A program made the position numbers and the translations under genes. Shown piece by piece: positions 28,260 to 64,000 of a DNA stretch of 64,000 nucleotides. A model generated the notes under the pieces. The model was given only the letters and a program-made list of their open reading frames with translations, was not told the DNA's origin and ran no database searches. Source of the stretch: a virus (taxonomy: Duplodnaviria; Caudoviricetes); IMG/VR virus record IMGVR_UViG_2917802685_000001, positions 1 to 64,000 of that record; one strand, written 5' to 3'. Position 1 is the first letter of the stretch; the number at the start of each line of letters is the position of its first letter.

Positions 28260-29023
28260 CCACCGTGGAGGCGATGGTCAGACCGACTAGGTCGCGTCGT
28301 CTGAGGGACTGGTAATCCCTTGTGGGAAGTGCACTCTTGGCGGAGAGACTCCCACCGGCCCTACGGGCCGCTAAGCGAAGAGGGGCGTCACGGAGATGGA
28401 GGTCTCCGGGCGCCCCTCAAGCCGTTTCTGAGGAAGTCCGTGCATCGTCAGCCCCCTTGGCGGGTTCGGGCACGCCTGTGCCCGGGGGTGGTCTGTGGTG
28501 GTGGCTCCAGGCTGGCGGGCCCGGTACGGAAGACATTGAACATCATCGGGGGCAGAAATGGACAGCCGCCCTCCGAACGGATTGCAGGCGCTGCTCTGTG
28601 GCGGCGTGTCTGCACCTCGGGTCGTGTACACCGAGGGCAGTTTTTGGGTAGGCTGGCTCATGCCAGCGACCTCCTTGGACGTGGATCTTCAAGTGGGTAT
28701 GAGGTTGTTGGCCCCACCGACAGAAGATGACCGGCCAAGGTCTCTGTCGGACGGCCGCCGAGGGATGGGGATCCCGATGACGCGGCCGTTGGTGTTTCTG
28801 GAGCCAGGTGAAGCAGACACGACCCTCGGTGGGCGGAACCGACGATGGTCGCGTGGGTCACCCTAGTACCTCTGTGGTGCCAGATGCACGGACCCTGCGC
28901 ACGAAACCTACAGGCGCGCCCCGCTGACACCCCGTCGGGAAATCCGCCGGAGCAAAAACGCGACTTCGCCGCTGGCCGCTGTGTAGCGTCGCGCACGCCG
29001 CCAGACTTGCCCTGCTCACCGCC

Positions 29024-31168
29024 ATGAGCAGCATCACCACCTTCAAGGGGCCCTCCATGCCGTCCGCTCCGCCTGCGACCTTTTTGTCCCTGCAAGAGCT
29101 GTTCGCCCGCCACCTCCCGGGCTACCGACGCCGTCCGCAGCAGGAGCACCTGGCGCAGGCCATCGAGCTGACGCTGACCCAGGACCTCACCGCGCACGAG
29201 CCCATGCACCTCCTGGCTGAGGCGGGCACCGGCACTGGCAAGTCGTACGCCGCCCTCGTCGCCGCGATCCTCGCCAGCCGCGCCGGGGGAGAGGACGTAC
29301 CCCGCAAGAGGTTCGTCGTCGCCACCGCGACCAACGCCCTCCTGACCCAGTACACAAAAAAAGATCTCCCGTGGCTGGAGGAGGTCCTGGCCGAGGTCGG
29401 CATCGACTTCACCTGGGCCCCGCTCAAGGGCATCGGCAACTTCATCTGCCTGGCCAAGATGGCCGACAGCCCCAAGATCGAGAACCTGCAGGCGCTGCGC
29501 GAGGAGATCGCGCCGGACGAGAACGGCCAGCTCACCCACACCGGCGACCGCGACGACGTCACCACGCCGGTCGACCAGCGCCGCGAGTGGCCGCTGGTGT
29601 CCGCCTCCAGCGACGAGTGCCCCGGCCGGGGGAAGTGCGGGTTCGCCGAGCAGTGCTTCGGCCTGCGGCACAAGGACGCCGCCATGGGCGCCGACATCGT
29701 CGCGACCAACATGGCGGTCCTGCTCACCGACACCAAGATCGCCCGGGAGACCGCCGGGGACGACGGGGAGGGCCCCCGGATCCACGTCCTTCTCGGCGAG
29801 TACGACGGCCTGATCATCGACGAGGCCCACGAGCTGGAGGACCAGGCGACCAGCCACCTCGGGTTCGACATCAAGCAGGGCGGCCTGCTCAAGTGGGCCG
29901 ACCAGGCCATGAGCTTCCTCGCCGTCCACGAGGACGTGGACGAGCAGCGCGCCGGGAAGAGCTTCGACGCCCACCAGGACGTCGTGAACGCCATCGAGGC
30001 CCTGACCCAGCCGATCGCCGACCAGCTGGAGCACGACCAGACCGGCGCCATCGACGCCGACTTCATCGGCTACCACGCCGACCGGTTCGTGGCGCTGTGG
30101 ATGGCGCTCGAAGTCCTGCGCCAGCGCGTGGTCAAGCGGAAGATCGCCGACTCCTCCGACCAGGAGAGGGAGGAGGCCATCCGCAACCGGATCATCACCG
30201 TCGGCCGCAACTTCCTGGCCAACATCAAGGCCGTCATGCTCGCCGACCCCAACGAGATGGTCCGCTGGGCCGAGATGTACGGCAACGAGCGCATGACCAT
30301 CGGCAAGCGCTGGATGATCAAGGCCGCGCCCATCGGCGTCGGCCCCTACCTCCGCGAGGAGCTGTGGAGCCGTTACCCGGCCGTCCTGATGTCCGCCACC
30401 CTCAGCGCGGGTACCGGCGAGCGCCGCTTCGACTACATCGCCCGCCGCCTCGGCCTGAAGGACACCGCCGCCACTCTCGACGTCGGTAGCCCCTTCAACT
30501 ACCGCGCTCAGGCCCTCACCTTCCACCCCGCCGCCGACGTCCCGGCCCCGGCCGGGGAGACCCGAGGCGAATGGGAGACCTGGGTCGCGGCTGCCACCCT
30601 GGCCCTGGTGCGCGCTGCCGGGGGAGGAGCCCTGCTGCTCTACACCTCCCGCAAGGCCATGACCGAGGCATACAACGTCGTCGGCGGCCAGCTGCGTGCC
30701 GACGGCTACGCCACCTTCGTCCAGGGCGGCGACATGAGCGTCAAGGAGATGGCCGAGCGCTTCCGCGCCGACGAGCACAGCGTCCTGTTCGGCTTGAGGT
30801 CCTTCATGACCGGCATGGACTTCCCCGGCAACACCTGCCGCCTCGTCGTCGTCGACAAGCTCCCCTTCGCCGTCCCCAGCGACCCCATCCACAAGGCCCG
30901 CAGCGAGGCCATCGAGCGCCAGGGCGGCAATGCCTTCGCCGACCTGGTCGTGCCGTCCATGACCCTGACCCTCCTGCAGGCGTACGGCCGCCTCATCCGC
31001 AGCGTGGGTGACTCCGGCGTCGTCGCCCTGATGGACCCGCGCCTGGCCAGCAAGGGCTACGGCCGGGGCATCGTCAAGGCTCTCCCGCCCGCGCCCGTCA
31101 CCACGGCACTGGGAGACGTCGTCGGCTTCTACAAGGGATTCCAGGTGGAACTGCCCGCCGCCGCTTGA
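29024..31168 (+). CDS. dinG: DinG-family ATP-dependent helicase (Fe-S); start may be 29057
   Basis: EAGTGTGKS, Cys cluster, IIDEAH, MSATL, GMDFPG and QAYGRLIR motifs. Confidence 0.85.
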   Translation: MSSITTFKGPSMPSAPPATFLSLQELFARHLPGYRRRPQQEHLAQAIELTLTQDLTAHEPMHLLAEAGTGTGKSYAALVAAILASRAGGEDVPRKRFVVATATNALLTQYTKKDLPWLEEVLAEVGIDFTWAPLKGIGNFICLAKMADSPKIENLQALREEIAPDENGQLTHTGDRDDVTTPVDQRREWPLVSASSDECPGRGKCGFAEQCFGLRHKDAAMGADIVATNMAVLLTDTKIARETAGDDGEGPRIHVLLGEYDGLIIDEAHELEDQATSHLGFDIKQGGLLKWADQAMSFLAVHEDVDEQRAGKSFDAHQDVVNAIEALTQPIADQLEHDQTGAIDADFIGYHADRFVALWMALEVLRQRVVKRKIADSSDQEREEAIRNRIITVGRNFLANIKAVMLADPNEMVRWAEMYGNERMTIGKRWMIKAAPIGVGPYLREELWSRYPAVLMSATLSAGTGERRFDYIARRLGLKDTAATLDVGSPFNYRAQALTFHPAADVPAPAGETRGEWETWVAAATLALVRAAGGGALLLYTSRKAMTEAYNVVGGQLRADGYATFVQGGDMSVKEMAERFRADEHSVLFGLRSFMTGMDFPGNTCRLVVVDKLPFAVPSDPIHKARSEAIERQGGNAFADLVVPSMTLTLLQAYGRLIRSVGDSGVVALMDPRLASKGYGRGIVKALPPAPVTTALGDVVGFYKGFQVELPAAA

Positions 31169-33527: not shown

Positions 33528-33611
33528 CAAAACGCCTCCCCGCCAGGAGGCCCTCTTCCACGGCAGACCGTCATTTTGCCGTGCCCAGCCACCGCCAGGT
33601 TGGAGACCTCT

Positions 33612-34344: not shown

Positions 34345-34391
34345 TCCATCACCGCCCGGCCGCCACCGGGCCCTCATCAAGGACCGCCACC

Positions 34392-35240
34392 TTGAAACGA
34401 CCTCCCCCTCCTCCGACCTGCCAGCCGCTGTCCAACCCGGACTTCGACCGGCTCAAGGCCGTCCGCCCCCGCCTGTGGACCAGCCCCAAGGACACCTGCC
34501 TGACCTGCCTCAAGCGGGACGGCAACACCTACCGCTGGTACGCCGCCGACGCTGCGAACCGCCGCACCGAGGAGGTCGTCACCTACGAGTGCGACTGCCG
34601 CGACCAGTGGCTCATGCACCTGTGGTTCCTCAACGCGGGCATCCCACTGAACTATCAGCGCCTGGGCTGGGACGACATCAAGGCCGTTCCGCAGCACATC
34701 GTTGAGCAGGTCATGGGCTATGCCCTCCAGGCGGCCCGCAACATCGCCTCCGGACGCAACCTGATCCTCTGGTCCAAGGACCCTGGCACCGGCAAGACGC
34801 TTTTCCTCGCCCTGCTGTGCAAGTTCCTCATGGCCAACGGATTTCAGGCCCACTTCTCGCAGTTCAACGACGTCATCGACCTCTTCACCTCCACCTGGCG
34901 CGACAAGGACGAGCGGGAGCACTGGACGCGCCGCGTGCGCAACGTGGACGTCCTCGCCATGGACGACATGGGCAAAGAGAACAAGGGCCGGATCGACGTA
35001 GTCGAGGACATGGTCGACCGCATCATCCGCGCCCGCGTCTCCGACGCCGCGCCCACGATCATCACCAGCAACCGATCTCCCCAGGAGATCCAGCAGGGTT
35101 ACGGCGTCTACGCGATGAGCCTGCTCAGCGAGTCCGCCGACTTCATCGAGATCCCCGGCACCGACTACCGGCCCGCGCGACGCGAACTCTCCCGCCAGGA
35201 AGCCGACCTCGGCCTGGCCCGACCCATCACGGCGGTATGA
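34392..35240 (+). CDS. DnaC/IstB-like AAA+ helicase loader
   Basis: CLTC...CDC Zn motif, PGTGKT, VLAMDDMG, TIITSN; TTG start. Confidence 0.85.
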   Translation: MKRPPPPPTCQPLSNPDFDRLKAVRPRLWTSPKDTCLTCLKRDGNTYRWYAADAANRRTEEVVTYECDCRDQWLMHLWFLNAGIPLNYQRLGWDDIKAVPQHIVEQVMGYALQAARNIASGRNLILWSKDPGTGKTLFLALLCKFLMANGFQAHFSQFNDVIDLFTSTWRDKDEREHWTRRVRNVDVLAMDDMGKENKGRIDVVEDMVDRIIRARVSDAAPTIITSNRSPQEIQQGYGVYAMSLLSESADFIEIPGTDYRPARRELSRQEADLGLARPITAV

Positions 35241-40457: not shown

Positions 40458-40495
40458 CTGGCTTCACCTGCCATCAAAGATCTTCAGGAGCCTTC

Positions 40496-50060: not shown

Positions 50061-50093
50061 GCCTCCCACCTCTGACCGCCATCGGAGACCCCT

Positions 50094-50899: not shown

Positions 50900-51594
50900 G
50901 CGACCTCACCGACATGATCGACAACGATCAAGCGGCCAGGCAGGCCACCCGGGTCGTCGGCGAACTCGCCCGCGAGGCCGACCAGCCGCTCAGTGTCGAC
51001 ATCGACCCCGACCGCACCCGTGAGACGGCCACGGCCGGGTTCTCCCGGATGCGCACCGAGTGGCGACCTGGGGAGGCTGCCGAGGTCGCAGGCGTTATGC
51101 AGCAGGCCCAGGGCATCATCCACCGGGCCTTCCCTGGCGTCTACCTGATCATGAACGAGCTGTGGATGACCGTACGAGAACCGGTCGTGGACGAGGCCTC
51201 CGGCGAGATCCAGACCGACATCTTCGGCTGGCCGCTCTGGAAGAAGCTCCCCTCCGGCGCCTACATCGAGGACTACTCCCGCCTCACCGACCGGGAGAAG
51301 GACGACTTCCTGCTGCGCATCACCACCGGCCTGCTGGAGTGGCACCAGCAAGCGGCCAACCTGTGGGGTGAGTCCATGCTGGCCAAGGGGCGCTGGGAGG
51401 AGGCCATGGGTGTCGGCTTCATCTCGCCGACCGGCCGGGTCACCGTCGAGGAGCGCACGCAGCGCGGTCGGGTGTACGCCGCCGAGGACCGCTACCACGC
51501 GATCTTCCGCTCGGCCGTCAACCGCTCAGCCGAGGCCCTCGTCAGAAGTATGGAGCTGATCGGGCAGCGGCTCAAGGACTCCCTGACGGCCTGA
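50896..51594 (+). CDS. Hypothetical protein
   Basis: 232 aa, GGGAGGAG RBS. Confidence 0.7.
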   Translation: MSDLTDMIDNDQAARQATRVVGELAREADQPLSVDIDPDRTRETATAGFSRMRTEWRPGEAAEVAGVMQQAQGIIHRAFPGVYLIMNELWMTVREPVVDEASGEIQTDIFGWPLWKKLPSGAYIEDYSRLTDREKDDFLLRITTGLLEWHQQAANLWGESMLAKGRWEEAMGVGFISPTGRVTVEERTQRGRVYAAEDRYHAIFRSAVNRSAEALVRSMELIGQRLKDSLTA

Positions 51595-51743
51595 GTCCTG
51601 TCTGTGGTCCAACTTCGATCGACGAAAAGTTGGAGTTGCGGGCGGGGGCCTGCTTATGCTGACACAGAATTCCAGATGTGCTGCCGCCACATGCACATCC
51701 GGGAAGGCGCGACCGCCACGCGTCAGTAAAGGAACCCGCCTGC

Positions 51744-52136
51744 ATGACCATTGACGTGCGCGTGCTCCGGGAACTGTTCCGGCATCTCCAGGCGTGGAAC
51801 ACCCTCTATGAAACGGAGGGTATGGACACGATAACTGGCCCGGACGGTACCGAGTACTGCATCCACGACATCGTCCACCTCTACAAGAACGCCGTCGAAA
51901 GACGCGGCGAAAACGGAAAGCACCTGCTTTCCCCCCGCCAGCGCGAAGCAATTCAGCTGTTCCTCATCGAGAACCGGCCCGAGCGGGAAGTCGCCCGCCT
52001 CATGGGCGTCTCCGAGGACAACCCCGTCGCCTCCTACGCCACCCAGGGCCTCGTCCGCCTCAACGAGCTGATCAAGGCAGGCGTCATCCCCGGCAACGGC
52101 AGCGCCGACGAGGGGCTGGAGGTCGCGGCAGCATGA
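51744..52136 (+). CDS. Sigma-70 region-4-like HTH protein
   Basis: LSPRQREAIQLFLIENRPEREVARLMGVS; no region 2 recognised. Confidence 0.7.
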   Translation: MTIDVRVLRELFRHLQAWNTLYETEGMDTITGPDGTEYCIHDIVHLYKNAVERRGENGKHLLSPRQREAIQLFLIENRPEREVARLMGVSEDNPVASYATQGLVRLNELIKAGVIPGNGSADEGLEVAAA

Positions 52137-52426
52137 GCGACCGCATCCGCAACGGCATCGACGCCGACCTCGAAGCCCAGGCCGACGCGATCTTGCGCCA
52201 GTCCTTCCTCGACAACCCCGATCCCGAGGAAAAGGCCAAGATCCTCACGCCCTACATGCTGCAGAACCGGCTCAAGCGCGAGGTCTTCGTGCCCGGCGGC
52301 ACCCCCGACGGAGCCGTCCGCAAGGGCAGCTTCCACCGGGCCATCAACCGCCAGCACCCCCACCTCAACGCAGCAGAGGGCGTCGCCCGGCCGCAGCACC
52401 GAGTCCCGCTGAAGGCCGAAGAGTGA
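52133..52426 (+). CDS. Hypothetical protein
   Basis: 97 aa, ATGA overlap. Confidence 0.6.
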   Translation: MSDRIRNGIDADLEAQADAILRQSFLDNPDPEEKAKILTPYMLQNRLKREVFVPGGTPDGAVRKGSFHRAINRQHPHLNAAEGVARPQHRVPLKAEE

Positions 52427-53070
52427 GCGACAACCTGCCCGAGGTCCTCGACCCTGACGCCTCCGGCCCGGTCAGCATGGTCATGGTGCGCGTCGGCAAC
52501 CGGACCGTGCCCGCCAAGACCGGCTCCCGCTGCCGCGTCTGCCAGTCCCCCCACCGCGCCCAGATCGAGGCATGGATCCTGGAGGGCTACACCCGGCCCA
52601 CCATCCTCGCCTGGCTCAAGGACATGGAGGAAGGCCCCCTCGGCCACCCCACCGAGAAGGCCCTGCGCAGCCACACCGACCGCCACCTCCCGCTCGGCGC
52701 CCGCGCCGAGGCCGCCATCCTGGAGCGCCGGACCGAAGCGCTCGGCGAGGAGATAGAAAAATTTGGCGGCCGTGTCGCAGACCATCTCACCGCCCTGGAT
52801 ATGGTCGTTCTGAAGGGCTTCCAGGCCCTCCAGGAAGGCAACATCAAGCTCGGCGCCTCCGACCTCATGAAGGCCATCGACCTCAAGCAGAAGATCGACG
52901 CTTCTGTCGAGGGCGGGCTGGACGACAAGAAGTGGCGCGGAATCCTCATGGAGTACATGAAGATAGCCGTCGAGTTCATCCCGCCAGAGAACCGACAGGC
53001 TTTCGCAAGAGCCCTCAGCCAAAGCCCAGTACTCACCGCGCTGTCACAAAGCAATCAGCAACAAATGTAA
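52423..53070 (+). CDS. Zn-ribbon/HTH protein (possible small terminase or regulator)
   Basis: CRVC...H..RH followed by a helical domain. Confidence 0.5.
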   Translation: MSDNLPEVLDPDASGPVSMVMVRVGNRTVPAKTGSRCRVCQSPHRAQIEAWILEGYTRPTILAWLKDMEEGPLGHPTEKALRSHTDRHLPLGARAEAAILERRTEALGEEIEKFGGRVADHLTALDMVVLKGFQALQEGNIKLGASDLMKAIDLKQKIDASVEGGLDDKKWRGILMEYMKIAVEFIPPENRQAFARALSQSPVLTALSQSNQQQM

Positions 53071-53133
53071 AAAACTCCGGTCCGCCACCCGGAAACCACC
53101 ACCACTCCTTCCGCCAGAGGAGAACAGCCCGTC

Positions 53134-54126
53134 ATGCACCTCCGCGAGCCCTCAACCACCACACTCGCCGACCTCGACCGCGCCTGGAAGAACCGCGACC
53201 GCGAGTGGACCTCCGACGCCTGCGTCCCCTCCGTCGACTTCCCCCAGGCCCCCGGCGTCGAGCCGACCATCCTCCTCGGCGACCACGAGATCACCCTGGA
53301 CGAGAAGGCCATCGAGCTGCTGTGCGCCTTCTACCAGGTCCCCACCGCGTACTTCCGGCGCATCACCGCCGAAGAGCGGCACTACGTGATGAACATGCGG
53401 ATGACCCACGCCCTGGGCGAGGTGACGATCACCTACAACGACCGAGGCCTCACCGACGTCCGCAAGCCGACCAAGCCCCGCCTGGAGGCCGAGGAGTTCG
53501 TCCGCATCGCCCACCGGCTCTACCCGGCCTCCTCCACCGTGCTGGACGCCTGGGTCACCGCCGACGAGCTGCGCCTGGACGTCCTGGGCCGCCACGCCGA
53601 GGACGGCGTCTGGGGAGGACTGCGCTTCGGCCAGAACCGTAAGCAGAACCTCGCCCCCACCGTGACCCCCATCCTCTTCCACGAGGACACCACCACGGTG
53701 ATCGAGATCCCCGACCCCTCCCTGAAGATCGACGCACGCGGCGTCTCCATCGACAAGATCGGCGAACGTCTCGCCGCCGAGGCCCTGCGCGCCGACGCCC
53801 GCCTGTACAAGGACGCCGAGCACCTGCTGGGCCTGGTCAACAGCTCCATCGCCGGGGACCGCATCATCCGCCTGCACCGCATCGCTGCCGAGCACAAGAT
53901 GCCCGTCCGGCCGCTCGCCGACATCACCGTCGCGCTCTCCCGCAACGACCAGCCGACCCTGCTCGACATGGTGCTGGCCATCGCCAACACGGCCAACGCC
54001 CCCAAGATCCTGCAGGACCCCGACAAGCGGAAGCTGCGCACCACCCTCCAGGCCATCGCCGGAGCCGTCGTGGTCGACGAAGCCGAACGCTGCATCTCCT
54101 GCCACGCCCTCGTCGCCGCCGCCTGA
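53134..54126 (+). CDS. Hypothetical protein
   Basis: 330 aa, RBS AGGAG; C-terminal CxxC. Confidence 0.7.
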   Translation: MHLREPSTTTLADLDRAWKNRDREWTSDACVPSVDFPQAPGVEPTILLGDHEITLDEKAIELLCAFYQVPTAYFRRITAEERHYVMNMRMTHALGEVTITYNDRGLTDVRKPTKPRLEAEEFVRIAHRLYPASSTVLDAWVTADELRLDVLGRHAEDGVWGGLRFGQNRKQNLAPTVTPILFHEDTTTVIEIPDPSLKIDARGVSIDKIGERLAAEALRADARLYKDAEHLLGLVNSSIAGDRIIRLHRIAAEHKMPVRPLADITVALSRNDQPTLLDMVLAIANTANAPKILQDPDKRKLRTTLQAIAGAVVVDEAERCISCHALVAAA

Positions 54127-54231
54127 CCGCCACCAGGAGACAACCGTGAACATGAACGACAACGCCAGAAGGGCGATCGTCACCGTCGCGTGGCTCGCCT
54201 TCGTCGCCTTCATCTTCTGGCTGGACGCCCG

Positions 54232-54786
54232 ATGACCGAGAACCTGCGCCAGCGAGACGGCGACCAGCCGCTGCCCACCGAGGGCCAGGAGAACGTCCAG
54301 GACGCCCTGATCGAGCGCATCAAGGAGCGCCGCGCGCTGGGCATCCAGCGCTACGGCCGCCCGCTGCAGACCTTCAACGGCCGCAACGCCGTACGCGATG
54401 CCCTCGAAGAGGCCCTCGACCTCTCCACCTACCTCATGCAGGTCGAGATGGAGCAGAAGGCCGTACAGGCACGGATCAGGCATGCACTGACGCTGCACGT
54501 CTCCGGCCTCAGCGGACTGTGCCTCACCTGCAAGTCGGCGGCCCCCTGTGCCACCCGAGAGGCCCTCACCAGCTCGCGGCCCGCACTCAAGGTCACCATC
54601 ATCGAGCCTTCCGAGGAACTCGTCTGCTCGCCGGACGCCGTGGAGGAGATCCGGCGCCAGTTCGGCGTCACCGAGGAACAGACCGGCCTGACCGGCATAG
54701 GCAGCCTGATGGGCTTCCCCGTCTTCGTGGATGACGAACTTCCGCCAGGCACTGTCCGCCTGCAGCCCAGCACCCCCAAGAAGTAA
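54232..54786 (+). CDS. All-alpha NTP pyrophosphohydrolase-like protein
   Basis: RRALGIQRYGRPL...DALEEALDLSTYL. Confidence 0.5.
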   Translation: MTENLRQRDGDQPLPTEGQENVQDALIERIKERRALGIQRYGRPLQTFNGRNAVRDALEEALDLSTYLMQVEMEQKAVQARIRHALTLHVSGLSGLCLTCKSAAPCATREALTSSRPALKVTIIEPSEELVCSPDAVEEIRRQFGVTEEQTGLTGIGSLMGFPVFVDDELPPGTVRLQPSTPKK

Positions 54787-54817
54787 CCACCCCCTCTCCT
54801 TCCGCCAGAGGAGCACC

Positions 54818-55297
54818 ATGACCGCCAGCAACCCGTCCGGCCTGATCCTGCCGCCGGGCGTCCAGTCCTCCAGCCCGTTCGGGCCCGCCGCCGACCGCTT
54901 CGACAAGGAGTACGGCGGCGTCCACCAGCGCAGCGAGCTGGCCCAGGGCGACATCCTCGACAGCGAGATCCTTGCGCTGGAGGCGATCTTCAAGGACATG
55001 CAGGACCGCTACGGCGTCCGCTCCTTCAACGTCACGGAGTTCGAGCGCGAGGCCAAGGACCGCTGCCACGACCAGCTCGGCCTCGCCATCGACATCCGCT
55101 GGAAGGCCCTCGCCGACGGCACCGGCCGCATCATCGAGGGCGCCGCCAGCCCCGAGATCGAGATCGTCGGCCGCGTCCAGAAGAAGGCGTTCGACCACGA
55201 CCACAAGGTCCACGAGGTCACCCGCGACATCCTCGACCTCGGCACCCAGGGCGTCATCGCCTCCGAGGAGCCCGCGCGCGGAGGACACCCCCACTGA
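54818..55297 (+). CDS. Hypothetical protein
   Basis: ATG at 54818 after AGGAG. Confidence 0.65.
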   Translation: MTASNPSGLILPPGVQSSSPFGPAADRFDKEYGGVHQRSELAQGDILDSEILALEAIFKDMQDRYGVRSFNVTEFEREAKDRCHDQLGLAIDIRWKALADGTGRIIEGAASPEIEIVGRVQKKAFDHDHKVHEVTRDILDLGTQGVIASEEPARGGHPH

Positions 55298-55434
55298 TGA
55301 GCTACCTCCGCGCCTTCCTGGTCAGGCGGCTCAGACTGCCCTATCTCCACGACGACATGCCGGACTGGCACGTGGAGTACAGCACCGCCCAGCTGTGGCG
55401 CTGGTATGAGCAGGTGCGCGAGGTGCGCCGATGA
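55297..55434 (+). CDS. 45-aa hypothetical protein (not in ORF track)
   Basis: TGATG and ATGA couplings at both ends; MSYLRAFLVRRLRLPYLH... Confidence 0.4.
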   Translation: MSYLRAFLVRRLRLPYLHDDMPDWHVEYSTAQLWRWYEQVREVRR

Positions 55435-55700
55435 GGGACAGCCGCCTGCACGACTGGGACGACGACAGCGTCACCGTGGCGATCATCCCCCAGGCATGCG
55501 GGAACTGCGGTGAGCGCACCGACCGCGTCCGCATGTCCCTGGAGGTCCTCGCCTCCGGCAGCAGCGGCTTCGTCGGCATCCACACCGTCGCCGAGACGCC
55601 CTGCTGCGGCGGCAAGCGCAACTCCGCCTACCCATCCGAGTACCTGGCCCGGCTTCTGGACCACCTCAAGGTCTGCCCGAACCACCACCGGAAACCGTAA
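55431..55700 (+). CDS. Zn-finger hypothetical protein
   Basis: CGNC...CC...HLKVC. Confidence 0.5.
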   Translation: MRDSRLHDWDDDSVTVAIIPQACGNCGERTDRVRMSLEVLASGSSGFVGIHTVAETPCCGGKRNSAYPSEYLARLLDHLKVCPNHHRKP

Positions 55701-55739
55701 ATCCATTTTTCCATTGAACCGTTGAAGGAGAACACCGCC

Positions 55740-56213
55740 ATGTCCCGCAACCGCGAAATCAACCTGGGCCCCGTCGCCCTCGTCGTCGGCGCCATCGTCG
55801 CCCTCGCCCTCGTCGTCGGCGTGTTCATGGGCGCCATCGCAGGCTTCAAGGCGTTCGGCCGCTACCAGGCCGTCACCGACGCGAAGAACGCGGCCACGGT
55901 CGCCCGGATCAAGGCCAACAACGACGTCTCCGTCACCGGCATCCAGATCAAGAACCAACAGCAGCGCGTCCAGGTCGCCAAGCAGCAGGCCCAGATCCGG
56001 TTCGAGAACGCCAAGGGCATCCGCGAGTCCCAGGACGAGATCGCCAAGACCCTGACACCGCTGTACGTGCAGTTCGAGATGACCGAGGCCCTGAAGGAGA
56101 TCGCCAAGAGCGGCAAGAACTCCTCGGTGGTGTACATCCCCTCCGGCGCCAACGGCGTGCCGCTGGTCTCTGGCGTCAACGGCCAGCCGTCGGTCACCAG
56201 CCCGGCGAAGTAG
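55740..56213 (+). CDS. Membrane-anchored coiled-coil protein (SPFH C-terminal-like)
   Basis: N-terminal TM helix; IAKTLTPLYVQF...VVYIP. Confidence 0.6.
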   Translation: MSRNREINLGPVALVVGAIVALALVVGVFMGAIAGFKAFGRYQAVTDAKNAATVARIKANNDVSVTGIQIKNQQQRVQVAKQQAQIRFENAKGIRESQDEIAKTLTPLYVQFEMTEALKEIAKSGKNSSVVYIPSGANGVPLVSGVNGQPSVTSPAK

Positions 56214-56220
56214 CGGTCGC

Positions 56221-56269
56221 TGTCCCACCGGCGCCCTCCCGCCCCAGAAGGGGTGAGGAGGGCGCCGCC
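56221..56269 (+). promoter_or_regulatory. Late-gene motif with 11-bp RBS-occluding inverted repeat
   Basis: TGTCC at 56221, AAGGGGTGA at 56248; CGGCGCCCTCC 56229-56239 / GGAGGGCGCCG 56257-56267. Confidence 0.65.
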
Positions 56270-58471
56270 ATGATCAGCAAGAACAACGAGGACACCTCGC
56301 CCCTGGCGAACTTTGATCCCACGGAGATTCACCAGCTGTTCCTGGGATTGGAGGTGCCCGATCCGATTACGTTCGTGGTCTCGCCGAGGTATCTGAACCG
56401 GCCAAACCTCTACCCGCGCCAGGCCACCCTCATGAAGGTGTTCTTCCTGCGCGAGGACCTCTTCACCGACTACGACTACCGGGTCGTCGCCGAGTGGGAC
56501 GAGTCCTACCGCACCGCCAAGTCCTCCAACGAACAGCGGGCCGCGCGCGCCGCTGAACTCGCCGAGACCAGCCCCGAAGCCGCCCTCGAAGCCGAGGTCG
56601 ACGGCATCATGACCGAGGCCCTCGACGCCATCGCCGCCCAGGCCCTGCTGGAGGGCAACGAGGACGCCCCCAAGATGCCCCTGTCCGGCTCCCCGGACCT
56701 CCTGGGCCGCATGCGCGCCTGCAAGGCTCTCGGCTACAGCTGGTTCAAAGAGATCCTCCTGGTCATGGGCCGCCGCGCAGGCAAGGGCCACATCAGCGCC
56801 CTGGCCATGGCCTACGTCCTGTGGTGCTACATGGCCAAGGGCGACCCCCAGGAGTTCTACGGCGTCGACCGCGACAAGAAGCTCGCCGTGCTGATCTTCG
56901 CCGGTAAGCGCGACCAGGCCAAACAGAACCTGTGGCGCGACCTCGTCAACGTCGTCACCGGCGGCCCGTGTTTCGCCCCCTACATCGCCGACAGCCTCGG
57001 CGAGAAGCTCTCCGTCTACGCGCCGAACGACTTCGTCCGCATGGAAGACATGCGCAAGCGCGGCATCAAGACCGCCATGGACATGGCCACCTTCCACATC
57101 CTGCCCAAGGAATCCACCGTCATGGCGGGCCGTGGCCCGGCCTCCATGATCCTCGGCTTCGACGAGATGGCCCACGTCGTCAACAGCGGCGCCAACCGCT
57201 CCGCCGGAGAGGTCTACGACGCCTCCACCCCCTCCCTCGACCAGTTCGGCAGAGACGGCTTCATCGTCGAGCCCAGCTCGCCGTGGGAGATGAGCGGCAA
57301 GTTCTACGACAACTGGCTGCGCGCCACCAGCTACGAGGACGACGGCACCCCCACCTACGCGAACGTCATGATGATCCAGCTCCCCAGCTGGGACGTCTAC
57401 CTCGACTGGCAGATCGCCCACGAACTGCCCCTCTTCCCCGAGGGCTTCACCGGCGACAACGGCGAGTACGCCGACTGCGACCCGCCCGGCTTCAAGCCCC
57501 TCAAGGGCGCCATCCAGAACTTCGACGAAGAGATGCGCAAGCTGGAGAAGGCCGACCCCGACACCTTCGCCGTCGAGCGCCGCGCCCAGTGGGCCACCGT
57601 CCTGGACGCCTACCTCAATCCGGACAAGGTCGAATCCGTCTTCGGCCCCTGGCACGAGCGCCCCGTCGAATACGGCAGCCCGCTCATCCTGCCCACCACC
57701 CAGGGCATCCTCGCCTACACCTACAAGGGCCACGCCGACCCCAGCTCCGTCAACTGCCGCTTCGGCGTCGCCCTCGCCCACACAGAGATCGACGCCGAGG
57801 GCCGCCCCCACGTCGTCTTCGACAAGATCCACTACTTCGATCCGGCCGACTTCCCGAACCACACCATCGACTACGAGGAAGTCGAGGACTGGATCTGGCA
57901 CGACATGATCGTCCCCTTCAGCCCCGACGACTTCACCTTCGACCAGTACCAGTCGGTCGGATCCATCCAGTCACTCGTCAAGCGGACCGCCAAGACGCGC
58001 CTGCCCAAGAAGGTCAACATCTGGGAGCGCACCGCCACCAACCAGATCAACTGGCGCTACGCCGAGACCTTCAAGGCCGCGATCAACATGGGCCTGGTCC
58101 ACGCGCCCGAGCACGAAGAGGGCATGCTGGAGCTGAAGTTCCTCCAGAAGAAGCCCGGCATCAACCGCGTCGATCACCCCACCATCGGTCCCGTCCAGAC
58201 CAAGGACATCGCCGATGCGATCATGATCACAACGTTCGCGCTCATCGGTGACTGGATCGAGGGCTACAAGGAGATGCTCAACGGCGCCAGGCCCGCTGGC
58301 GCCATGGTGGGTGGCCTGCACGGATCCAGCGCCCGCACCCCCGACATGGCCATGCCTGACCAGGACACACAGGCCCGCCTGAACGCCCTGCGCAGCTTCA
58401 CCCGCACCCGTACAGGACGCCAGGGCTGGGATCAAGGCCTCGGCCGCACAAGGTCCGGATATCGCCGCTGA
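56270..58471 (+). CDS. terL: Terminase large subunit
   Basis: YPRQ, MGRRAGKG (Walker A), ILGFDEMAH (Walker B), SSP; nuclease HADPS, TFDQY, KDIADA. Confidence 0.85.
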   Translation: MISKNNEDTSPLANFDPTEIHQLFLGLEVPDPITFVVSPRYLNRPNLYPRQATLMKVFFLREDLFTDYDYRVVAEWDESYRTAKSSNEQRAARAAELAETSPEAALEAEVDGIMTEALDAIAAQALLEGNEDAPKMPLSGSPDLLGRMRACKALGYSWFKEILLVMGRRAGKGHISALAMAYVLWCYMAKGDPQEFYGVDRDKKLAVLIFAGKRDQAKQNLWRDLVNVVTGGPCFAPYIADSLGEKLSVYAPNDFVRMEDMRKRGIKTAMDMATFHILPKESTVMAGRGPASMILGFDEMAHVVNSGANRSAGEVYDASTPSLDQFGRDGFIVEPSSPWEMSGKFYDNWLRATSYEDDGTPTYANVMMIQLPSWDVYLDWQIAHELPLFPEGFTGDNGEYADCDPPGFKPLKGAIQNFDEEMRKLEKADPDTFAVERRAQWATVLDAYLNPDKVESVFGPWHERPVEYGSPLILPTTQGILAYTYKGHADPSSVNCRFGVALAHTEIDAEGRPHVVFDKIHYFDPADFPNHTIDYEEVEDWIWHDMIVPFSPDDFTFDQYQSVGSIQSLVKRTAKTRLPKKVNIWERTATNQINWRYAETFKAAINMGLVHAPEHEEGMLELKFLQKKPGINRVDHPTIGPVQTKDIADAIMITTFALIGDWIEGYKEMLNGARPAGAMVGGLHGSSARTPDMAMPDQDTQARLNALRSFTRTRTGRQGWDQGLGRTRSGYRR

Positions 58472-58522: not shown

Positions 58523-58691
58523 GTCTCGTGAATGGGTTGCAGCCAGGGGTCCTTTCGGCCCGGGAACAACTGCAGCTGGCAGGCGTGCCTCAACGTGCCA
58601 CCCGGCGCCAGACCGATCAGGTCGGCCGGATGGCGCCGGGGTGTGGTGGAGTCTGGCGGGACTGACCACTACTTAAAACGTCTCACGAGAC
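58523..58691 (+). ncRNA. Candidate ~170-nt multi-stem structured RNA (strand not proven)
   Basis: TTGCCC-N18-CACGAT promoter-like site at 58487-58516; closing stem GTCTCGTGA/TCACGAGAC; four internal helices; downstream hairpin. Confidence 0.55.
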
Positions 58692-58698
58692 ACGAGAT

Positions 58699-58730
58699 GC
58701 CCCCCGGACAGGTACCGCCGGGGGGCTCTC
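58699..58730 (+). terminator. Hairpin after the candidate ncRNA
   Basis: GCCCCCCGG 58699-58707 / CCGGGGGGC 58718-58726. Confidence 0.55.
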
Positions 58731-58783: not shown

Positions 58784-61471
58784 ATGACGGACATCAGCGC
58801 GACCAGCTTCTTCCGCCAGGCGGGCGTCGCCGACGGCGGCATCGACTTCGACCACGAAGAGACCGACACCGGCAGCTCGATCTGGCCGACCAGGATCAAG
58901 CTCAAGGCCCTGCACCCCGAGACCGGCGAGGAGATGGGCTTCCTCGACTACCAGGTGCCCCGCCGCAAGACCAACAAGATCACCGTCCATGAGCTGAAGA
59001 CCCACGAGGACTACCAGCGCAAGGGCGTCGGCTCCGCCCTCATGGACGAGATGCAGCGCCGCCACCCCGGCACGCCTGTAGATCACGGCGACCGCACCCC
59101 CGCCGGTAAGGCGTGGTGGAAGGGCTACACCGACGGCAAGAAGGTCACCCGGGGCCGAACCATGGCCACCCGCACGACGGCCGCCGCCCCGGAGACCTTC
59201 GCGCGCGGCGACGGCGAGGATTGGCTGGCGCACCGCCAGCGCGTCCGCCACGGCCTGTCCACGGGCCGCATCTCCTACCCGCAGGCCCGCGAGCACGGCT
59301 ACGACGGCGATGCGCGAGAGGACACCCGCGACAGCTGGACCGGACAGCACACCGAAGGCAAGGGCTGGCAGCCCCTGCCCCACCAGCTCTACCACACCAC
59401 CACCGACGCCGCCGGAGTCGCCGCCCACGGCCTGCGCAGCGGCGGAGAACTCGGTCAGGACAGGGGCCACGGTCTCGGCGGCACCCCCGAGTGGCTGTCC
59501 CTGACCGACCACCACGACAACGCCCACAACATGCTCGATGCGATGCACGAGTACCACGCCCACCTCAACGGCAAGACCAGCTTCCCTGACCTCCACCGAG
59601 CGGCCGAGAGCGGAGAGGGCGCCCAGCAGCCCTTCCACAAGCCCTTCGTGGACGGCATCTCGGAGATGTACAACGAGCACCACCGAGACTCGCTGATGCG
59701 GGGGAAGCGCATCGAGCCCGGCTTCGCCACCTACGACGAGGCCAAGGAGAAGGGCTGGACGCCACACCCGACCCTCCACAAGGACTTCGGCGAGGACAAG
59801 CACGGCCGCCACATCGGCACCGGCTGGGAGCGCGACTCCAACCTCGAAGAGCGCCACGACGAGTACGGAGCCTTCTCCCGCGCCCGCCAGTTCTCCGGCA
59901 ACGGCAAGCCCTCCGTGCTGTTCACCAGCAACGACCGCCGGGCGTTCGCCGACAAGGACCCCAGGAACTTCGCCGTCCTCCACGTCCGCCCCCGCCCCGG
60001 CGGCCACGGCTTCCCCGGCGGCGACAAGCACGAGTGGCGCACCGGCAGCGGCGACGCCGTTGAGGTCCACGGCGAGCCCATCCGCCGTCAGGCCCTACGC
60101 GTCACGGCGGCCGTCCAGGACGGCGACGACATCCCGTCCCGCCTCCTCAACCCCCACGGCCACCACGTCCGCGCCCGGGTCGAGGGCAACACGAACGTTG
60201 AGATGGTCCCGCGCCACGAGGTCGAGCGCTACGCCAGCCAGCCGACCGACGACGCGCACACCAAGGAGGTCGGCACCCACGTCGCCACCAGCGGCGAGAT
60301 GGAGCCCCTCCTCCTGCACTACCACCCCGCCAGCGGTGAGGCCTACCTCGGCGAGGGCAACCACCGCTTGCGCGCCGCCAAGGCCCTGGGTATGGACCAC
60401 GTCCCCCTGCGCGTGAGCCGCTCCAGCTACGGCCTGCCCGGCCCCGGCGTGAAGGTCCCCCAGGACCACCCCGCCATCGCGGCAGGCGGCCACGTCCCGG
60501 CCGACATCTACCCCAGCCACATCGGCCTCACCGCAGTGGACAAGCCCGCCATCCCGGAGGGTGACCTGCGCAGCGCCAGGAACGACTACAACCTCACCGG
60601 CCGCCCCCGCCTGGCGGCAGCCGACACCCCCGTGCCGGACAACACCCAGCCGTACCAGCACGAGCACGACTGGCTTCCCCACGGCCACTTCTTCGGCCCC
60701 GGGAAGAAGGGCCTGGACCCGCGCCTGTTCGACGAGAACGACCGGATGCACCCGATCGTCCGCCAGCACCTGCTGTCTCTGCTCAACGCCTTCTGGACCC
60801 CGAAGTACGGCGACTCCTGGCAGTCCTGGGCCCGCGTCTACCTCACCGGCTCCGAGGCCTCCCACTGGTACGGCAACGGCGACCTCGACGTCCTCATCGG
60901 CATTGACCACGAGGCCCTCAACCACCACGTCGACCACTTCACCGGCGAGCCGGACGACGCGGTCGACGAGCGCCTCACCAACGAGCTGCGCGAGGGCCTC
61001 AACGACGACCACCGGATGTTCCCCGGCCCGGACGGCAAGGACACCGGCCCCTGGGAGTCGACCTTCTACGTCAACCCGGGCTCGTACGACATCCGCGACC
61101 TCAAGCCCTACGCCGCCTACGACATCACCCGCGACGAGTGGGCCGTCAAGCCGGTCGAGGTCCCCGACGACTTCGGGCCCGAGAAGCTCCCCGAGTCCAC
61201 CTGGGACGTCCTCGACGCGCTGCAGAAGCTCATCGGCGCCATCCAGGAGCTGCCCGCCGGAACCCGGGAGCGCGAGGGCGCCGCGCTGTACGATTACCTC
61301 CACGCTGACCGCCACAGCGCTTTCGGCCCCGAGGGATCGGGCCTCTATGACCCTGCCAACGCTGTCTGGAAGGCCCTCGACAAGGCCCCCGGCAAGCCGC
61401 TGCAGCAGCTCATCGACTGGAAACACGCCCACGACGGGACCGCCGCCACGGACCTGGAGACCGCAGCATGA
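58784..61471 (+). CDS. Polyvalent protein 1: GNAT + ART-like + ParB/Srx-like + nucleotidyltransferase
   Basis: YQRKGVGSALM; LYHTT..GL..WLSLT..HEW; GEGNHRLRAA; LTGSEAS..DLDVLI. Confidence 0.75.
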   Translation: MTDISATSFFRQAGVADGGIDFDHEETDTGSSIWPTRIKLKALHPETGEEMGFLDYQVPRRKTNKITVHELKTHEDYQRKGVGSALMDEMQRRHPGTPVDHGDRTPAGKAWWKGYTDGKKVTRGRTMATRTTAAAPETFARGDGEDWLAHRQRVRHGLSTGRISYPQAREHGYDGDAREDTRDSWTGQHTEGKGWQPLPHQLYHTTTDAAGVAAHGLRSGGELGQDRGHGLGGTPEWLSLTDHHDNAHNMLDAMHEYHAHLNGKTSFPDLHRAAESGEGAQQPFHKPFVDGISEMYNEHHRDSLMRGKRIEPGFATYDEAKEKGWTPHPTLHKDFGEDKHGRHIGTGWERDSNLEERHDEYGAFSRARQFSGNGKPSVLFTSNDRRAFADKDPRNFAVLHVRPRPGGHGFPGGDKHEWRTGSGDAVEVHGEPIRRQALRVTAAVQDGDDIPSRLLNPHGHHVRARVEGNTNVEMVPRHEVERYASQPTDDAHTKEVGTHVATSGEMEPLLLHYHPASGEAYLGEGNHRLRAAKALGMDHVPLRVSRSSYGLPGPGVKVPQDHPAIAAGGHVPADIYPSHIGLTAVDKPAIPEGDLRSARNDYNLTGRPRLAAADTPVPDNTQPYQHEHDWLPHGHFFGPGKKGLDPRLFDENDRMHPIVRQHLLSLLNAFWTPKYGDSWQSWARVYLTGSEASHWYGNGDLDVLIGIDHEALNHHVDHFTGEPDDAVDERLTNELREGLNDDHRMFPGPDGKDTGPWESTFYVNPGSYDIRDLKPYAAYDITRDEWAVKPVEVPDDFGPEKLPESTWDVLDALQKLIGAIQELPAGTREREGAALYDYLHADRHSAFGPEGSGLYDPANAVWKALDKAPGKPLQQLIDWKHAHDGTAATDLETAA

Positions 61472-63954: not shown

Positions 63955-64000
63955 AGTCCCGCCAGACCGGAGCAGTCAGGAGAACGCTCAAGTGAGCACC

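Follow-up and report, generated by a model that had tools for sequence, protein, structure and literature searches.

A CCGCCA leader motif in a Streptomyces phage-plasmid and two candidate small RNAs with complementary loops

The stretch of DNA analysed in this study (the window) comprises bases 1-64000 of the 154-kb phage-plasmid pRLB1-9.1, a myovirus-like element from Streptomyces sp. RLB1-9. No close relatives were found among isolated phages, the terminase sharing about 29% identity with its counterparts in Cluster C mycobacteriophages. Nearly all genes lie on the + strand, and copies of the hexamer CCGCCA were observed in front of about 70 genes of the phage-plasmid, dispersed over more than 100 kb. 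A sequence-only reading of the window had described 18 intergenic hairpins with CCGCCA in the loop, and the hexamer was present at 18/18 of these positions. The sites are collected in Table 1 together with two candidate small RNA loci, sRNA-1 and sRNA-2. A literature search found no published description of the CCGCCA leader motif, in agreement with the sequence-only reading.

Table 1. Leader sites and candidate small RNA features in the window. Loop starts are those of the sequence-only reading; (-) denotes the other strand.
Feature	Coordinates	Strand	Loop start and stem	Context or basis
Candidate reader sRNA-1, weaker paralogue of sRNA-2	28210..28436	+		between rep/HTH and dinG-like genes
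sRNA-1 GACCGAnnAGGUC hairpin	28281-93	+		same hairpin as in sRNA-2
sRNA-1 CUCU-UGGCGG-AGAG hairpin	28334-47	+	28343(-), 4 bp	28343(-) site of the sequence-only reading
sRNA-1 GC-rich hairpin, then GUUUCUG	within 28210..28436	+		predicted fold
Further UGGCGG (complement) copies	28458, 28513, 28599	+	28518(-), 6 bp	downstream in rep-dinG region
Linear copy	28998	+		directly follows TAGCGT -10-like box
Hairpin, CCGCCA loop	29012-29031	+	29019, 7 bp	dinG-like helicase ATG 29024 starts within loop; orthologues
Hairpin, one G-U	31227-31244	+	31233, 6 bp	after promoter-like pair TTGTCA-N18-TAGGGT; orthologues
Tandem hairpin 1, GCCTCC/GGAGGC	33534-51	+	33540, 6 bp	stem count, orthologues
Tandem hairpin 2, CCAGCC-ACCGCCA-GGTTGG	33585-603	+	33592, 6 bp	3' arm with Shine-Dalgarno GGAG of GTG 33612
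Tandem pair GCCCGG/CCGGGC and TCAAGG-ACCGCCA-CCTTGA	34354..34395	+	34360, 6 bp; 34384, 6 bp	annotated TTG start (34392) within 3' arm of second
Hairpin TTCGTG-aCCGCCAa-CACGAG, absent from the sequence-only reading	40492..40513	+		annotated GTG (40496) in 5' arm
Linear CCGCCATG copies (four) abutting start codon	45389, 45873, 55735, 56265 (range 45389..56270)	+		56265 = terminase start
Tandem pair GCCAA/TTGGC and AGCTGA/TCAGCT	46530..46566	+	46535, 5 bp; 46555, 6 bp	before RecA-family gene (46592)
Hairpin CTCTGA/TCGGAG, one G-U	50070..50087	+	50076, 6 bp	Shine-Dalgarno in 3' arm, 12 nt upstream of GTG 50094
Irregular hairpin, then GGCGCG-ACCGCCA-CGCGTC	51675..51724	+	51684, 4 bp with 9-nt loop or ATGTGC/GCACAT with 11-nt loop; 51713, 6 bp	upstream of sigma-70 region-4 gene (51744)
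Tandem pair TCCGG/CCGGA and CTCCTT/GAGGAG	53076..53122	+	53082, 5 bp; 53111, 6 bp	Shine-Dalgarno in 3' arm of second
Hairpin	54122..54137	+	54127, 4 bp	3' arm CAGG continues into Shine-Dalgarno GGAG, then GTG 54146
Hairpin CTCCTT/GAGGAG	54796..54813	+	54802, 6 bp	Shine-Dalgarno in 3' arm, before ATG 54818; orthologues
Candidate reader sRNA-2	58523..58730	+		conserved, covarying structure after terminase gene
sRNA-2 closing stem	58523-31 with 58683-91	+		predicted fold
sRNA-2 GACCGAUCAGGUC hairpin	within 58523..58730	+		predicted fold
sRNA-2 apical hairpin with invariant UGGCGGG	58654-58660	+		predicted fold
sRNA-2 GC-rich 3' hairpin	within 58523..58730	+		predicted fold
Hairpin CGCTG-ACCGCCA-CAGCG within coding sequence, absent from the sequence-only reading	61303..61320	+		kept in relatives; CACTG/CAGTG in relative L020
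Weak site	63956..63967	+	63959, 3 bp	L020 orthologue 5 bp

The counting of sense-strand intergenic hexamers over the whole plasmid demonstrated that CCGCCA ranks first, with 61 copies observed against 9.1 expected, a 6.7-fold excess over composition. Coding sense sequence holds 214 copies versus 210 +/- 10 expected from a synonymous-codon shuffle, which is the chance level. An enrichment of the kind by which the sequence-only reading had proposed to judge the motif was found, and a Chi-like or genome-wide DNA word was rejected because the coding copies match the shuffle expectation. A general Streptomyces leader feature was rejected by a 320-kb intergenic sample of the host chromosome, in which CCGCCA ranks 157th. 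Intergenic copies number 70 on the + strand and 11 on the other strand. The proposed family of 18 is real but larger than supposed, with about 70 intergenic sense copies extending beyond the window. Nor is the motif confined to the window's early and replication genes, as a large number of copies are found at 64-120 kb. Its reported absence from the leaders of tail genes was borne out, as bases 1-27000 hold a lone copy, at 5676, that forms no hairpin.

The distance from motif to start codon ranges from 0 to 66 nt and more, and many sites lie inside operons, 12-33 nt before the start codon. Ten CCGCCATG copies in the whole plasmid abut start codons, and several copies are found directly downstream of TAGAGT-type -10 boxes. 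Many first hairpins begin 1-19 nt past the upstream stop codon and others just after -10-like boxes, a placement that would suit RNA processing or stability elements, namely sites at which a hairpin-specific endoribonuclease would cut polycistronic early transcripts before each gene, or protective 5'/3' stem-loops, the conserved loop being the nuclease or protection determinant. RNA-active domains are also encoded, including a 2H/2'-5' ligase family protein (61468-63954). However, no candidate nuclease was found, and processing accounts neither for the hairpin-less CCGCCATG copies nor for the complementary sRNA loops and flank co-changes described below; we regard it as improbable.

Stem length was taken as the number of uninterrupted pairs; G-U pairs were accepted, and the loop could be widened by 0-1 nt on either side. 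By this count, stems of at least 5 bp enclose 21/71 intergenic versus 8/214 coding-sense copies (Fisher p = 1.4e-8; whole plasmid), and stems of at least 6 bp enclose 13/71 versus 3/214 (p = 1.7e-6); about 30% of the intergenic copies lie in the loops of 5-8 bp hairpins versus 4% in coding sequence. The target loops are hexa- to octaloops, the loop word is often (A/C)CCGCCA, and the conserved part is limited to 6-7 nt. Most of the 18 hairpins have stems of 4-7 bp, except that 51684 is irregular and 63959 has only 3 bp in this element. Other parts of the original description were upheld: hairpins occur in tandem pairs (33534..33603, 34354..34395, 46530..46566, 53076..53122), the Shine-Dalgarno sequence is placed in the 3' arm (33585-603, 50070..50087, 53076..53122, 54796..54813), and the stems vary among sites and among orthologues yet keep pairing. 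The first stem of 53076..53122, for example, is recoded in orthologues as AATCTGG/CCAGATT, CTCCGGC/GCCGGAG, TCTGGT/GCCGGA and AAATCC/GGATTT.

The several G-U pairs that had been noticed also proved informative. At interior non-Watson-Crick positions, G-U occurs 23 times and A-C 8 times (p = 0.01), against the C/A-rich composition, which indicates that the sense strand folds, most likely as RNA. The covarying stems, the excess of G-U over A-C and the restriction to leaders support the proposed RNA-level operator on the sense strand. An alternative is that a repressor binds oriented intergenic CCGCCA in duplex DNA, with the reversed cluster in the rep-dinG control region. The short intergenic location and the single orientation relative to transcription resemble stoperators (PMC9283540, PMC6550527), 4-6 copies are clustered between the divergent HTH gene and the early operon, and the motif switches between lineages. 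Nevertheless, 6-7 conserved bases and 214 coding copies in the same orientation would leave a duplex binder no specificity, complementary variable flanks and a preference for G-U over A-C would serve no purpose in double-stranded DNA, and the regions with reversed copies fold as + strand RNAs with G-U pairs, so that we consider DNA sites very improbable.

Relatives with at least 74% terminase identity share both the CCGCCA leaders and the UGGCGGG sRNA-2, a co-occurrence confounded by phylogeny in that it compares essentially one clade with outgroups. In four related genomes, CCGCC and CGCCA rank highest among the 5-mers found in the loops of intergenic hairpins. The loop conservation on which the motif was also to be judged was confirmed among these relatives, whereas G004, at 67% terminase identity, uses CCUGCCA instead (36 observed versus 7.7 expected) and lacks sRNA-2. 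The rep-dinG region of G004 has four copies of UGGCAGG, and a terminator-like hairpin carries one of these in its loop. L102, an independent 67% lineage, has kept two UUGGCGG hairpins after the terminase gene, the rest of the RNA being unalignable, but its 22 kb contain few target hairpins. A covariance model of the sRNA module gave only spurious matches inside coding sequence in G004 and G005.

The change to CCUGCCA in one lineage speaks against a host reader, such as 16S rRNA complementarity or a tRNA 3'-end mimic. It also bears on the explanation that there is no dedicated reader at all and that generic Shine-Dalgarno-sequestering hairpins tune translation, with CCGCCA as a favoured C-rich loop or spacer that is either stable or unstructured. 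The leaders of the element are C/A-rich, the 3' arms are often just the Shine-Dalgarno sequence with the 5' arms as its complement, and late genes have analogous hairpins with a different loop word. However, the loop words are class-specific, which argues for recognition; in addition, the 6.7-fold excess of a single hexamer, the absence of CCGCCA from host leaders and the concerted switch in the sister lineage all make hairpins lacking a reader quite improbable.

Among 12 sequence variants of sRNA-2, with 64% mean column identity, TGGCGGG is the longest invariant run and the sole one of 7 nt. The alignment has 86% of its cells paired, compared with 40-50% (mean about 45%) when the partners are slid, and 13 pairs with double changes, a number reached in 0/500 shuffles; several U-G variants occur, on the + strand. 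UGGCGGG lies at a hairpin tip in nearly all single-sequence folds. RNAalifold, applied to the first alignment, paired UGGCGG with the GACCGA hairpin region, and this pairing was not adopted because the single-sequence folds and helix counts favour the local hairpin; it may represent an alternative fold that masks the sRNA-2 loop. Phage and plasmid collections contained no match to sRNA-2 other than the element itself. No known RNA family was matched by the hairpins or the sRNAs: Rfam gave no match at gathering score for the window, and in either RNA locus no family, C4 included, matched at E <= 5. Both RNA loci were scanned in a simple way for sigma-70 promoters and for terminators, with nothing convincing returned.

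A covariance model of the 3' module gave + strand matches only in the rep-dinG region (E = 1e-4, 0.014 and 0.022), and the + strand fold of this region contains 14 compensated pairs as well as numerous G-U pairs. The sequence-only reading had placed two of its targets, 28343(-) and 28518(-), in the rep leader. The former lies inside the + strand sRNA-1 and the latter just downstream; neither is a secure target, and the strand of 28343(-) was probably misread, while that of 28518(-) may have been. It is equally possible that the complement copies of this region belong to the leader of the divergent rep gene as same-sense targets.

In the predicted folds, the apical loops are complementary, with UGGCGG(G) at the tips of sRNA-2 and sRNA-1 and (C)CCGCCA in the target loops. 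A duplex of 6 bp has an energy of -9.9 kcal/mol, and one of 7 bp has -13.2 kcal/mol. In the minimum-free-energy folds, U-G and C-G pairs close the loop down to a GGCG tetraloop, and the six loop bases may therefore not all be accessible. The chance of a 6-mer complement anywhere in a 200-nt G+C-rich RNA is roughly 5-10%.

The flanks of the two loops were also compared between lineages. The base 5' of the sRNA UGGCGG is C in the element itself and G001 and U in G002, G003 and L072, and across these C/U lineages target position +1 is A in 22/72 versus 19/140 copies (p = 0.005); in L072, 4/7 targets have A and none has G at this position. The second base 3' of the sRNA UGGCGG is U only in G001, and in the comparison with this genome target position -2 is A in 24/70 versus 23/142 copies (p = 0.005). 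The sRNA loop flanks and target flanks thus appear to shift together between lineages at two positions, with p about 0.005 each, values that reflect one or two evolutionary events, about four inspected positions and a Shine-Dalgarno-biased context. Targets of the element's own lineage show no preference at position -2 for the base predicted by sRNA-2.

These data also bear on a reading by protein, in which a phage RNA-binding protein would recognise single-stranded (A/C)CCGCCA in loops and open leaders, like T4 RegA, Mu Com, CsrA or coat-protein repressors, and the UGGCGG RNAs would be anti-operators competing with the protein, or unrelated. A short position-flexible motif, tandem hairpins and frequent overlap with the ribosome-binding site are typical of protein translational operators; the concerted one-base motif switch of G004 demands an element-encoded reader, possibly a protein; and most early proteins belong to no known family, so that a novel RNA binder could hide among them. 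On the other hand, a protein reader explains neither why the invariant sRNA loop is the exact complement of the motif nor why the sRNA loop and target flanks shift in complementary directions, and we judge it unlikely. A Pfam search of 30 early proteins revealed no RNA-binding domain, and a six-frame search of the element revealed no ANTAR (PF03861) or CsrA (PF02599) domain. Between the RNA-binding protein and the trans-acting sRNA that had been suggested as readers, only the sRNA has a concrete candidate.

The CCGCCA leader tags and the two candidate RNAs with complementary loops point to an RNA-against-RNA switch for a gene class. Our best reading, which is favoured tentatively, is that loop-loop pairing between phage sRNAs and leaders sets translation. 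CCGCCA, often (A/C)CCGCCA, would mark the 5' leaders of the phage-plasmid's non-late genes as an address tag at the RNA level. In about 40% of the leaders the tag lies in the loop of a short hairpin whose 3' arm frequently holds the Shine-Dalgarno sequence or start codon, and the remaining tags are unpaired, beside the start codon or near the predicted transcript 5' end. The tag would be read through base pairing by the apical loop UGGCGG(G) of structured small RNAs that the phage encodes: sRNA-2, which follows the terminase gene, and probably a second, sRNA-1, which is placed between the rep/HTH and dinG-like genes. A G+C-rich loop-loop or seed duplex of 6-8 bp, about -10 to -13 kcal/mol, is predicted on or beside the ribosome-binding site and therefore would set the translation, and possibly the stability, of the whole gene class together. 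We infer sRNA transcription, leader pairing and the direction and timing of the effect as parts of this best explanation, with repression as the likelier direction.

A more far-reaching proposal, which we consider possible but somewhat doubtful, is that one or two sRNAs act as a genome-wide 'RNA repressor': by means of a U-turn-like UGGCGGG loop they would kiss some 70 leader tags and keep an entire temporal gene class off, an RNA equivalent of stoperator immunity. In this proposal, one-base re-coding, as in the CCUGCCA/UGGCAGG lineage, would create RNA-defined immunity groups among related Streptomyces phage-plasmids. The silencing of lytic genes in the plasmid state, raised by the sequence-only reading, is speculation.

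Little is understood of gene control in Streptomyces phages or in phage-plasmids at large, and we know of no phage that addresses a whole class of its own mRNAs via one loop word and small RNAs that it encodes itself. If confirmed, a single 6-7-nt tag with a single sRNA loop would constitute a compact, re-codable post-transcriptional switch, which would account for the way in which dozens of genes are kept expressed or timed in a phage-plasmid of 154 kb, provide a model for RNA-based immunity specificity and supply orthogonal hairpin/sRNA parts for Streptomyces synthetic biology. Even with a protein reader, the motif defines a regulon and its gene membership.

Concerning known systems, the Y-U-G-G of the sRNA loop fits the YUNR (U-turn) pattern, and L102 has UUGGCG, the hexanucleotide of the Inc RNA loop. 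As in kissing plasmid antisense RNAs (IncI-alpha/IncB Inc RNA-repZ, R1 CopA/CopT and ColE1 RNA I/RNA II; background in PMC4872101, PMC10724649), the candidates have a G+C-rich apical loop of 6-7 nt that is predicted to be complementary to a hairpin loop beside a ribosome-binding site. Unlike Inc, CopA and RNA I, which are cis-encoded with one target, the replication gene, the candidate RNAs are trans-encoded with about 70 loop-word targets and have no sequence or Rfam relationship to these RNAs. They are intergenic and lie opposite no target, and so do not class as cis-antisense RNAs.

In P1/P7 C4 and P4 CI, a small structured immunity RNA is complementary to short sites on the phage's own lytic transcripts. 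Candidate sRNA-1 sits in a comparable control region. The targets of C4 and CI, however, are two or three sites of a single operon, the C4 covariance model gave no match, and C4 and CI belong to an unrelated host and phage lineage (for mentions of C4, see PMC8201110, PMC8546580).

The stoperators of Cluster A phages are dozens of oriented short asymmetric intergenic words, spread genome-wide, that co-evolve with a phage-encoded reader and hence differ between lineages (PMC9283540, PMC6550527). The sites of the element likewise occupy short intergenic regions and share a single orientation with respect to transcription; however, stoperators are 13-bp duplex-DNA sites for a monomeric repressor, whereas the element has 6-7 nt in sense-strand hairpins with covarying stems. 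The SAS/ESAS of Cluster K also form a conserved word by the starts of a subset of actinophage genes, sometimes flanked by inverted repeats and of obscure function (PMC3203893). The word of the element similarly adjoins the translation starts of a gene subset, but SAS is a 13-nt sequence that takes in the Shine-Dalgarno sequence, at a fixed distance of 3-8 nt from the start, while CCGCCA is separate from the Shine-Dalgarno sequence and lies at 0-66 nt.

Short loop motifs on variable stems, in tandem and with the second hairpin overlapping the Shine-Dalgarno sequence, are shared with the CsrA/RsmA-CsrB and ANTAR systems. The loop words differ, being GGA for CsrA, A1/G4 hexaloops for ANTAR and CCGCCA for the element; the 7-nt ACCGCCA loops fit the A1/G4 rule and tandem pairs exist, but plain CCGCCA hexaloops (C1, C4) do not fit. 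CsrB decoys carry same-sense repeats, whereas the non-coding RNAs of the element carry the complement of the motif. In lambda N/boxB the loop is a GNRA-like pentaloop, present at a small number of nut sites where operons begin, in contrast to the hexa- to octaloops of the element at about 70 sites, many of which are intra-operon.

This analysis showed that the CCGCCA hairpins of the window form a real family, which is peculiar to this phage lineage and is folded on the sense strand. The window is bases 1-64000 of NZ_CP041653.1, the circular plasmid pRLB1-9.1 (154,158 bp, 69% G+C) of Streptomyces sp. RLB1-9, which carries nearly all of its genes on the + strand. Among its products are ParA, a baseplate protein and an HK97-fold capsid protein, and its large terminase shares about 29% identity with the enzymes of Cluster C mycobacteriophages and of Rhodococcus phage E3. 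The replication and recombination module comprises a dinG-like helicase, a 5'-3' exonuclease, a DnaB-like helicase, a primase-like protein, Pol III alpha and a RecA-family protein. From this gene content, pRLB1-9.1 is a myovirus-like phage-plasmid; the phage collection compared contained no close isolated phage.

All 18 CCGCCA positions named by the sequence-only reading were present, and 16 of them had 4-7 contiguous flanking pairs, the stem at 51684 being irregular and that at 63959 only 3 bp long. Among the 71 strictly intergenic copies in the whole plasmid, 21 had stems of at least 5 bp and 13 of at least 6 bp, compared with 8 and 3 of the 214 coding-sense copies (Fisher p = 1.4e-8 and 1.7e-6, respectively). 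CCGCCA was the commonest sense-strand intergenic hexamer (61 observed vs 9.1 expected from composition), and an unbiased listing of intergenic hairpins gave CCGCC (36) and CGCCA (31) as the leading loop 5-mers, the next best reaching 12. Inside genes the word stayed at the level of synonymous-codon shuffles (214 vs 210 +/- 10), and its excess is limited to leaders. In a 320-kb sample of a related host's chromosome (strain cg35), it ranked 157th among intergenic hexamers, with 0.8 per kb vs 5.2 per kb in the plasmid. In plasmid genes, the complement word UGGCGG was rarer in the mRNA sense than in synonymous-codon shuffles (66 vs 90 +/- 7, z ~ -3.2), perhaps because pairing with the leader tag is avoided.

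Three classes (see the table) can be distinguished among the roughly 70 intergenic copies of the + strand, and their flanks show a preference for C or A at -1 and at no other position. Hairpin-loop copies are often tandem, spaced by 20-52 nt; the first hairpin of a pair usually lies 1-19 nt past the upstream stop, and the second holds the Shine-Dalgarno sequence or start codon in its 3' arm. Class-3 tags would, judging from their promoter-like context, stand at the extreme 5' end of transcripts. The plasmid region at 78-116 kb (L002, L003) contains many small genes with an upstream TAGAGT-type -10 box and CCGCCA 7-20 nt further 3'. One hairpin lies within a coding sequence and is kept in five relatives, its stem being changed with compensation in the relative L020. 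The unannotated ORF at 54146-54235 has the 54127 hairpin and a GGAG 5' of it, and the 99 nt annotated as 'leader' of the 54232 gene probably represent a small coupled gene.

Coordinates of tag copies, late-word leaders and candidate RNA features (window positions unless stated)
Feature	Position	Strand	Details
Tag class 1, hairpin loop		+	About 26-30 copies; loops CCGCCA, ACCGCCA or ACCCGCCA
Tag class 2, start-abutting	10 copies, one abutting the terminase start (56270)	+	As CCGCCATG
Tag class 3, near -10-like box	Plasmid 78-116 kb (TAGAGT boxes)	+	A few bases 3' of TAGCGT, TAGGGT or TAGAGT
Tag hairpin within a gene	61303-61320	+	In coding sequence 58784-61471, about 150 nt 5' of next gene
Unannotated ORF	54146-54235	+	29 codons, GTG 54146 to TGA overlapping ATG 54232 (ATGA); hydrophobic peptide
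Late-word leaders	10845-10890, 14080-14126, 19150-19198; plasmid 121-152 kb (L003)		Carry CAAGGGGTGA
Large terminase gene	56270-58471	+
Candidate sRNA-2	58523-58730	+	3' of terminase gene
Longest invariant run in sRNA-2	58654-58660	+	TGGCGGG, exact complement of CCCGCCA
Candidate sRNA-1	28210-28436	+	rep-dinG region
Match to sRNA-2 3' module	28277-28337	+	E = 0.022
Further UGGCGG copies	28458, 28513, 28599		3' of sRNA-1 hairpin
RF02928-like stretch	28740-28850	+	Sub-threshold match to Rfam Actinomyces-1 RNA, 32.1 bits vs gathering 39.1, E = 0.0035

The hairpin stems are entirely unlike between sites, yet they pair, and the stem of the 53082 hairpin is recoded among orthologues (variants TCCGG/CCGGA, AATCTGG/CCAGATT, TTCCGG/CCGGGG, CTCCGGC/GCCGGAG, TCTGGT/GCCGGA and AAATCC/GGATTT). 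At interior non-Watson-Crick positions of 88 hairpins from four genomes, G-U outnumbered A-C by 23 to 8 (p = 0.01), which is opposite to expectation because the sense strand is rich in C and A. These recoded paired stems, the G-U excess and the confinement to leaders support the earlier idea of an RNA-level operator. A six-base word that is found at chance frequency in genes (214 copies) cannot alone guide a duplex-DNA binder.

A terminase search for relatives yielded about 30 contigs, viral or metagenomic, besides two genome records of Streptomyces, and five complete relatives (G001-G005) were compared. Where terminase identity was 74% or higher, CCGCCA again ranked first among leader hexamers (observed/expected 52/7.8, 64/10.9 and 68/10.2). 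The leading words of G004 (67% identity) were CCTGCC (36/7.7) and CTGCCA (34/4.3), filling equivalent places, some in hairpin loops (GCCGACCG-ACTGCCA-CGGTCGGC and CTGCCATG are examples) and others just 5' of the Shine-Dalgarno sequence. Neither form of the word was seen in G005 or in further relatives near 50% identity. As a one-base change was made together at dozens of sites in G004, the reader must be encoded by the element.

The sequence-only reading had proposed a phage protein or a trans-acting sRNA as this reader. A protein remains plausible: a search of 30 early proteins gave no RNA-binding domain, and the element yielded neither a CsrA nor an ANTAR domain, but most of these proteins belong to no known family. 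For the sRNA alternative, there are now concrete candidates that are conserved. The 312-bp gap 3' of the terminase gene, containing sRNA-2, is kept in all CCGCCA lineages. Its alignment (12 distinct variants, mean column identity 64%) supports a + strand structure of four helices, in which 86% of cells were paired, compared with 40-50% (mean ~45%) when partners were slid, and the 13 double-changed pairs were equalled in 0/500 shuffles. Several variants are U-G pairs that the opposite strand could not form, and the closing stem is ACG/CGU instead of GUG/CAC in the relative L072. UGGCGG lies at a hairpin tip in nearly all single-sequence folds; no Rfam family matched sRNA-2.

A covariance model of the sRNA-2 3' module (GACCGAnnAGGUC hairpin and UGGCGGG hairpin) ranked orthologues first, followed by the + strand of the rep-dinG region, with E = 1e-4 in G001 and 0.014 in G002 besides the window match. 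Within the plasmid, the 15-mer AGACCGAnnAGGTCG occurs exactly at the sRNA-1 and sRNA-2 loci only, and the sRNA-1 fold has many G-U pairs, 14 compensated pairs and a GC-rich end hairpin followed by GUUUCUG. From these similarities, sRNA-1 is a probable paralogue of sRNA-2. The site 28343(-), earlier counted as a rep-leader target, is a CUCU-UGGCGG-AGAG hairpin inside this fold, so that it more probably belongs to a reader RNA than to the targets. Read on the + strand, the 28513-28518 hairpin contains an A-C mismatch, which becomes G-U on the - strand; it may fold on either. The RF02928-like stretch, kept in G002 and G003, is part of this non-coding region of 962 bp. In the rep-dinG region of G003 (L062), a relative of the CCGCCA lineage, UGGCAG occupies the loop of a GGGGAAC/GUUCCCC hairpin, the loop of its near-twin G002 being unrelated; this is a possible intermediate in loop-word recoding.

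G004 has no sRNA-2. In its rep-dinG region, UGGCAGG, which is complementary to the tag of G004 itself, occurs four times, once within the 10-nt loop of a hairpin that has a 12-bp stem and GUUUUCUG after it; the hairpin at the equivalent position in G001 carries UGGCGG in its loop. In L102, which is an independent lineage at 67% and has kept CCGCCA, the post-terminase RNA is shorter and unalignable, with two UUGGCGG hairpins. Flanking bases also changed: C stands immediately 5' of UGGCGG in pRLB1-9.1 and G001, and U takes its place in G002, G003, L071 and L072, and A at target +1 occurs at 22/72 sites in G002 vs 19/140 in pRLB1-9.1 plus G001 (p = 0.005), the +1/+2 context being biased by the Shine-Dalgarno sequence; in L072, +1 is A in 4/7 and G in none. 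At the second position 3' of UGGCGG, G001 alone has U, and there target -2 is A in 24/70 vs 23/142 elsewhere (p = 0.005); own-lineage targets show no preference at -2. Both shifts run in the complementary direction, within the scope of few independent evolutionary events and about four positions inspected.

Leaders of tail genes, in which the sequence-only reading had seen no such hairpin, lack CCGCCA, and so do those of head genes. Their conserved word is CAAGGGGTGA, preceded by TGCTGTC at a distance of about 20-23 nt; it usually occupies the loop of a long hairpin (11-13 bp) in which the Shine-Dalgarno sequence forms the 3' arm and is thus sequestered. GGGGTG is enriched in leaders of both G001 and G004, so the late word was kept where the early word changed; the loop words are class-specific.

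sRNA-1 and sRNA-2 are candidate readers of the tag, and their transcription and their pairing with the leaders are predicted. A G+C-rich loop-loop duplex of 6-7 bp (-9.9 to -13.2 kcal/mol) would form on or beside the ribosome-binding site, the leader hairpins themselves having energies of -3.5 to -11.4 kcal/mol. In the simplest case it would keep the 30S subunit from binding, or would lock those hairpins in which the Shine-Dalgarno sequence is hidden, while activation or a change in RNA decay would be alternative effects; pairing might silence genes in the plasmid state or shut off non-late genes late in infection. Stoperator-like DNA sites, processing sites and hairpins without a reader account for fewer of the findings. 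The literature searched contained no prior description of the CCGCCA motif or of either RNA. Fast-pairing antisense loops follow the YUNR pattern, and the sRNA loop, which starts with Y-U-G-G, fits this pattern.
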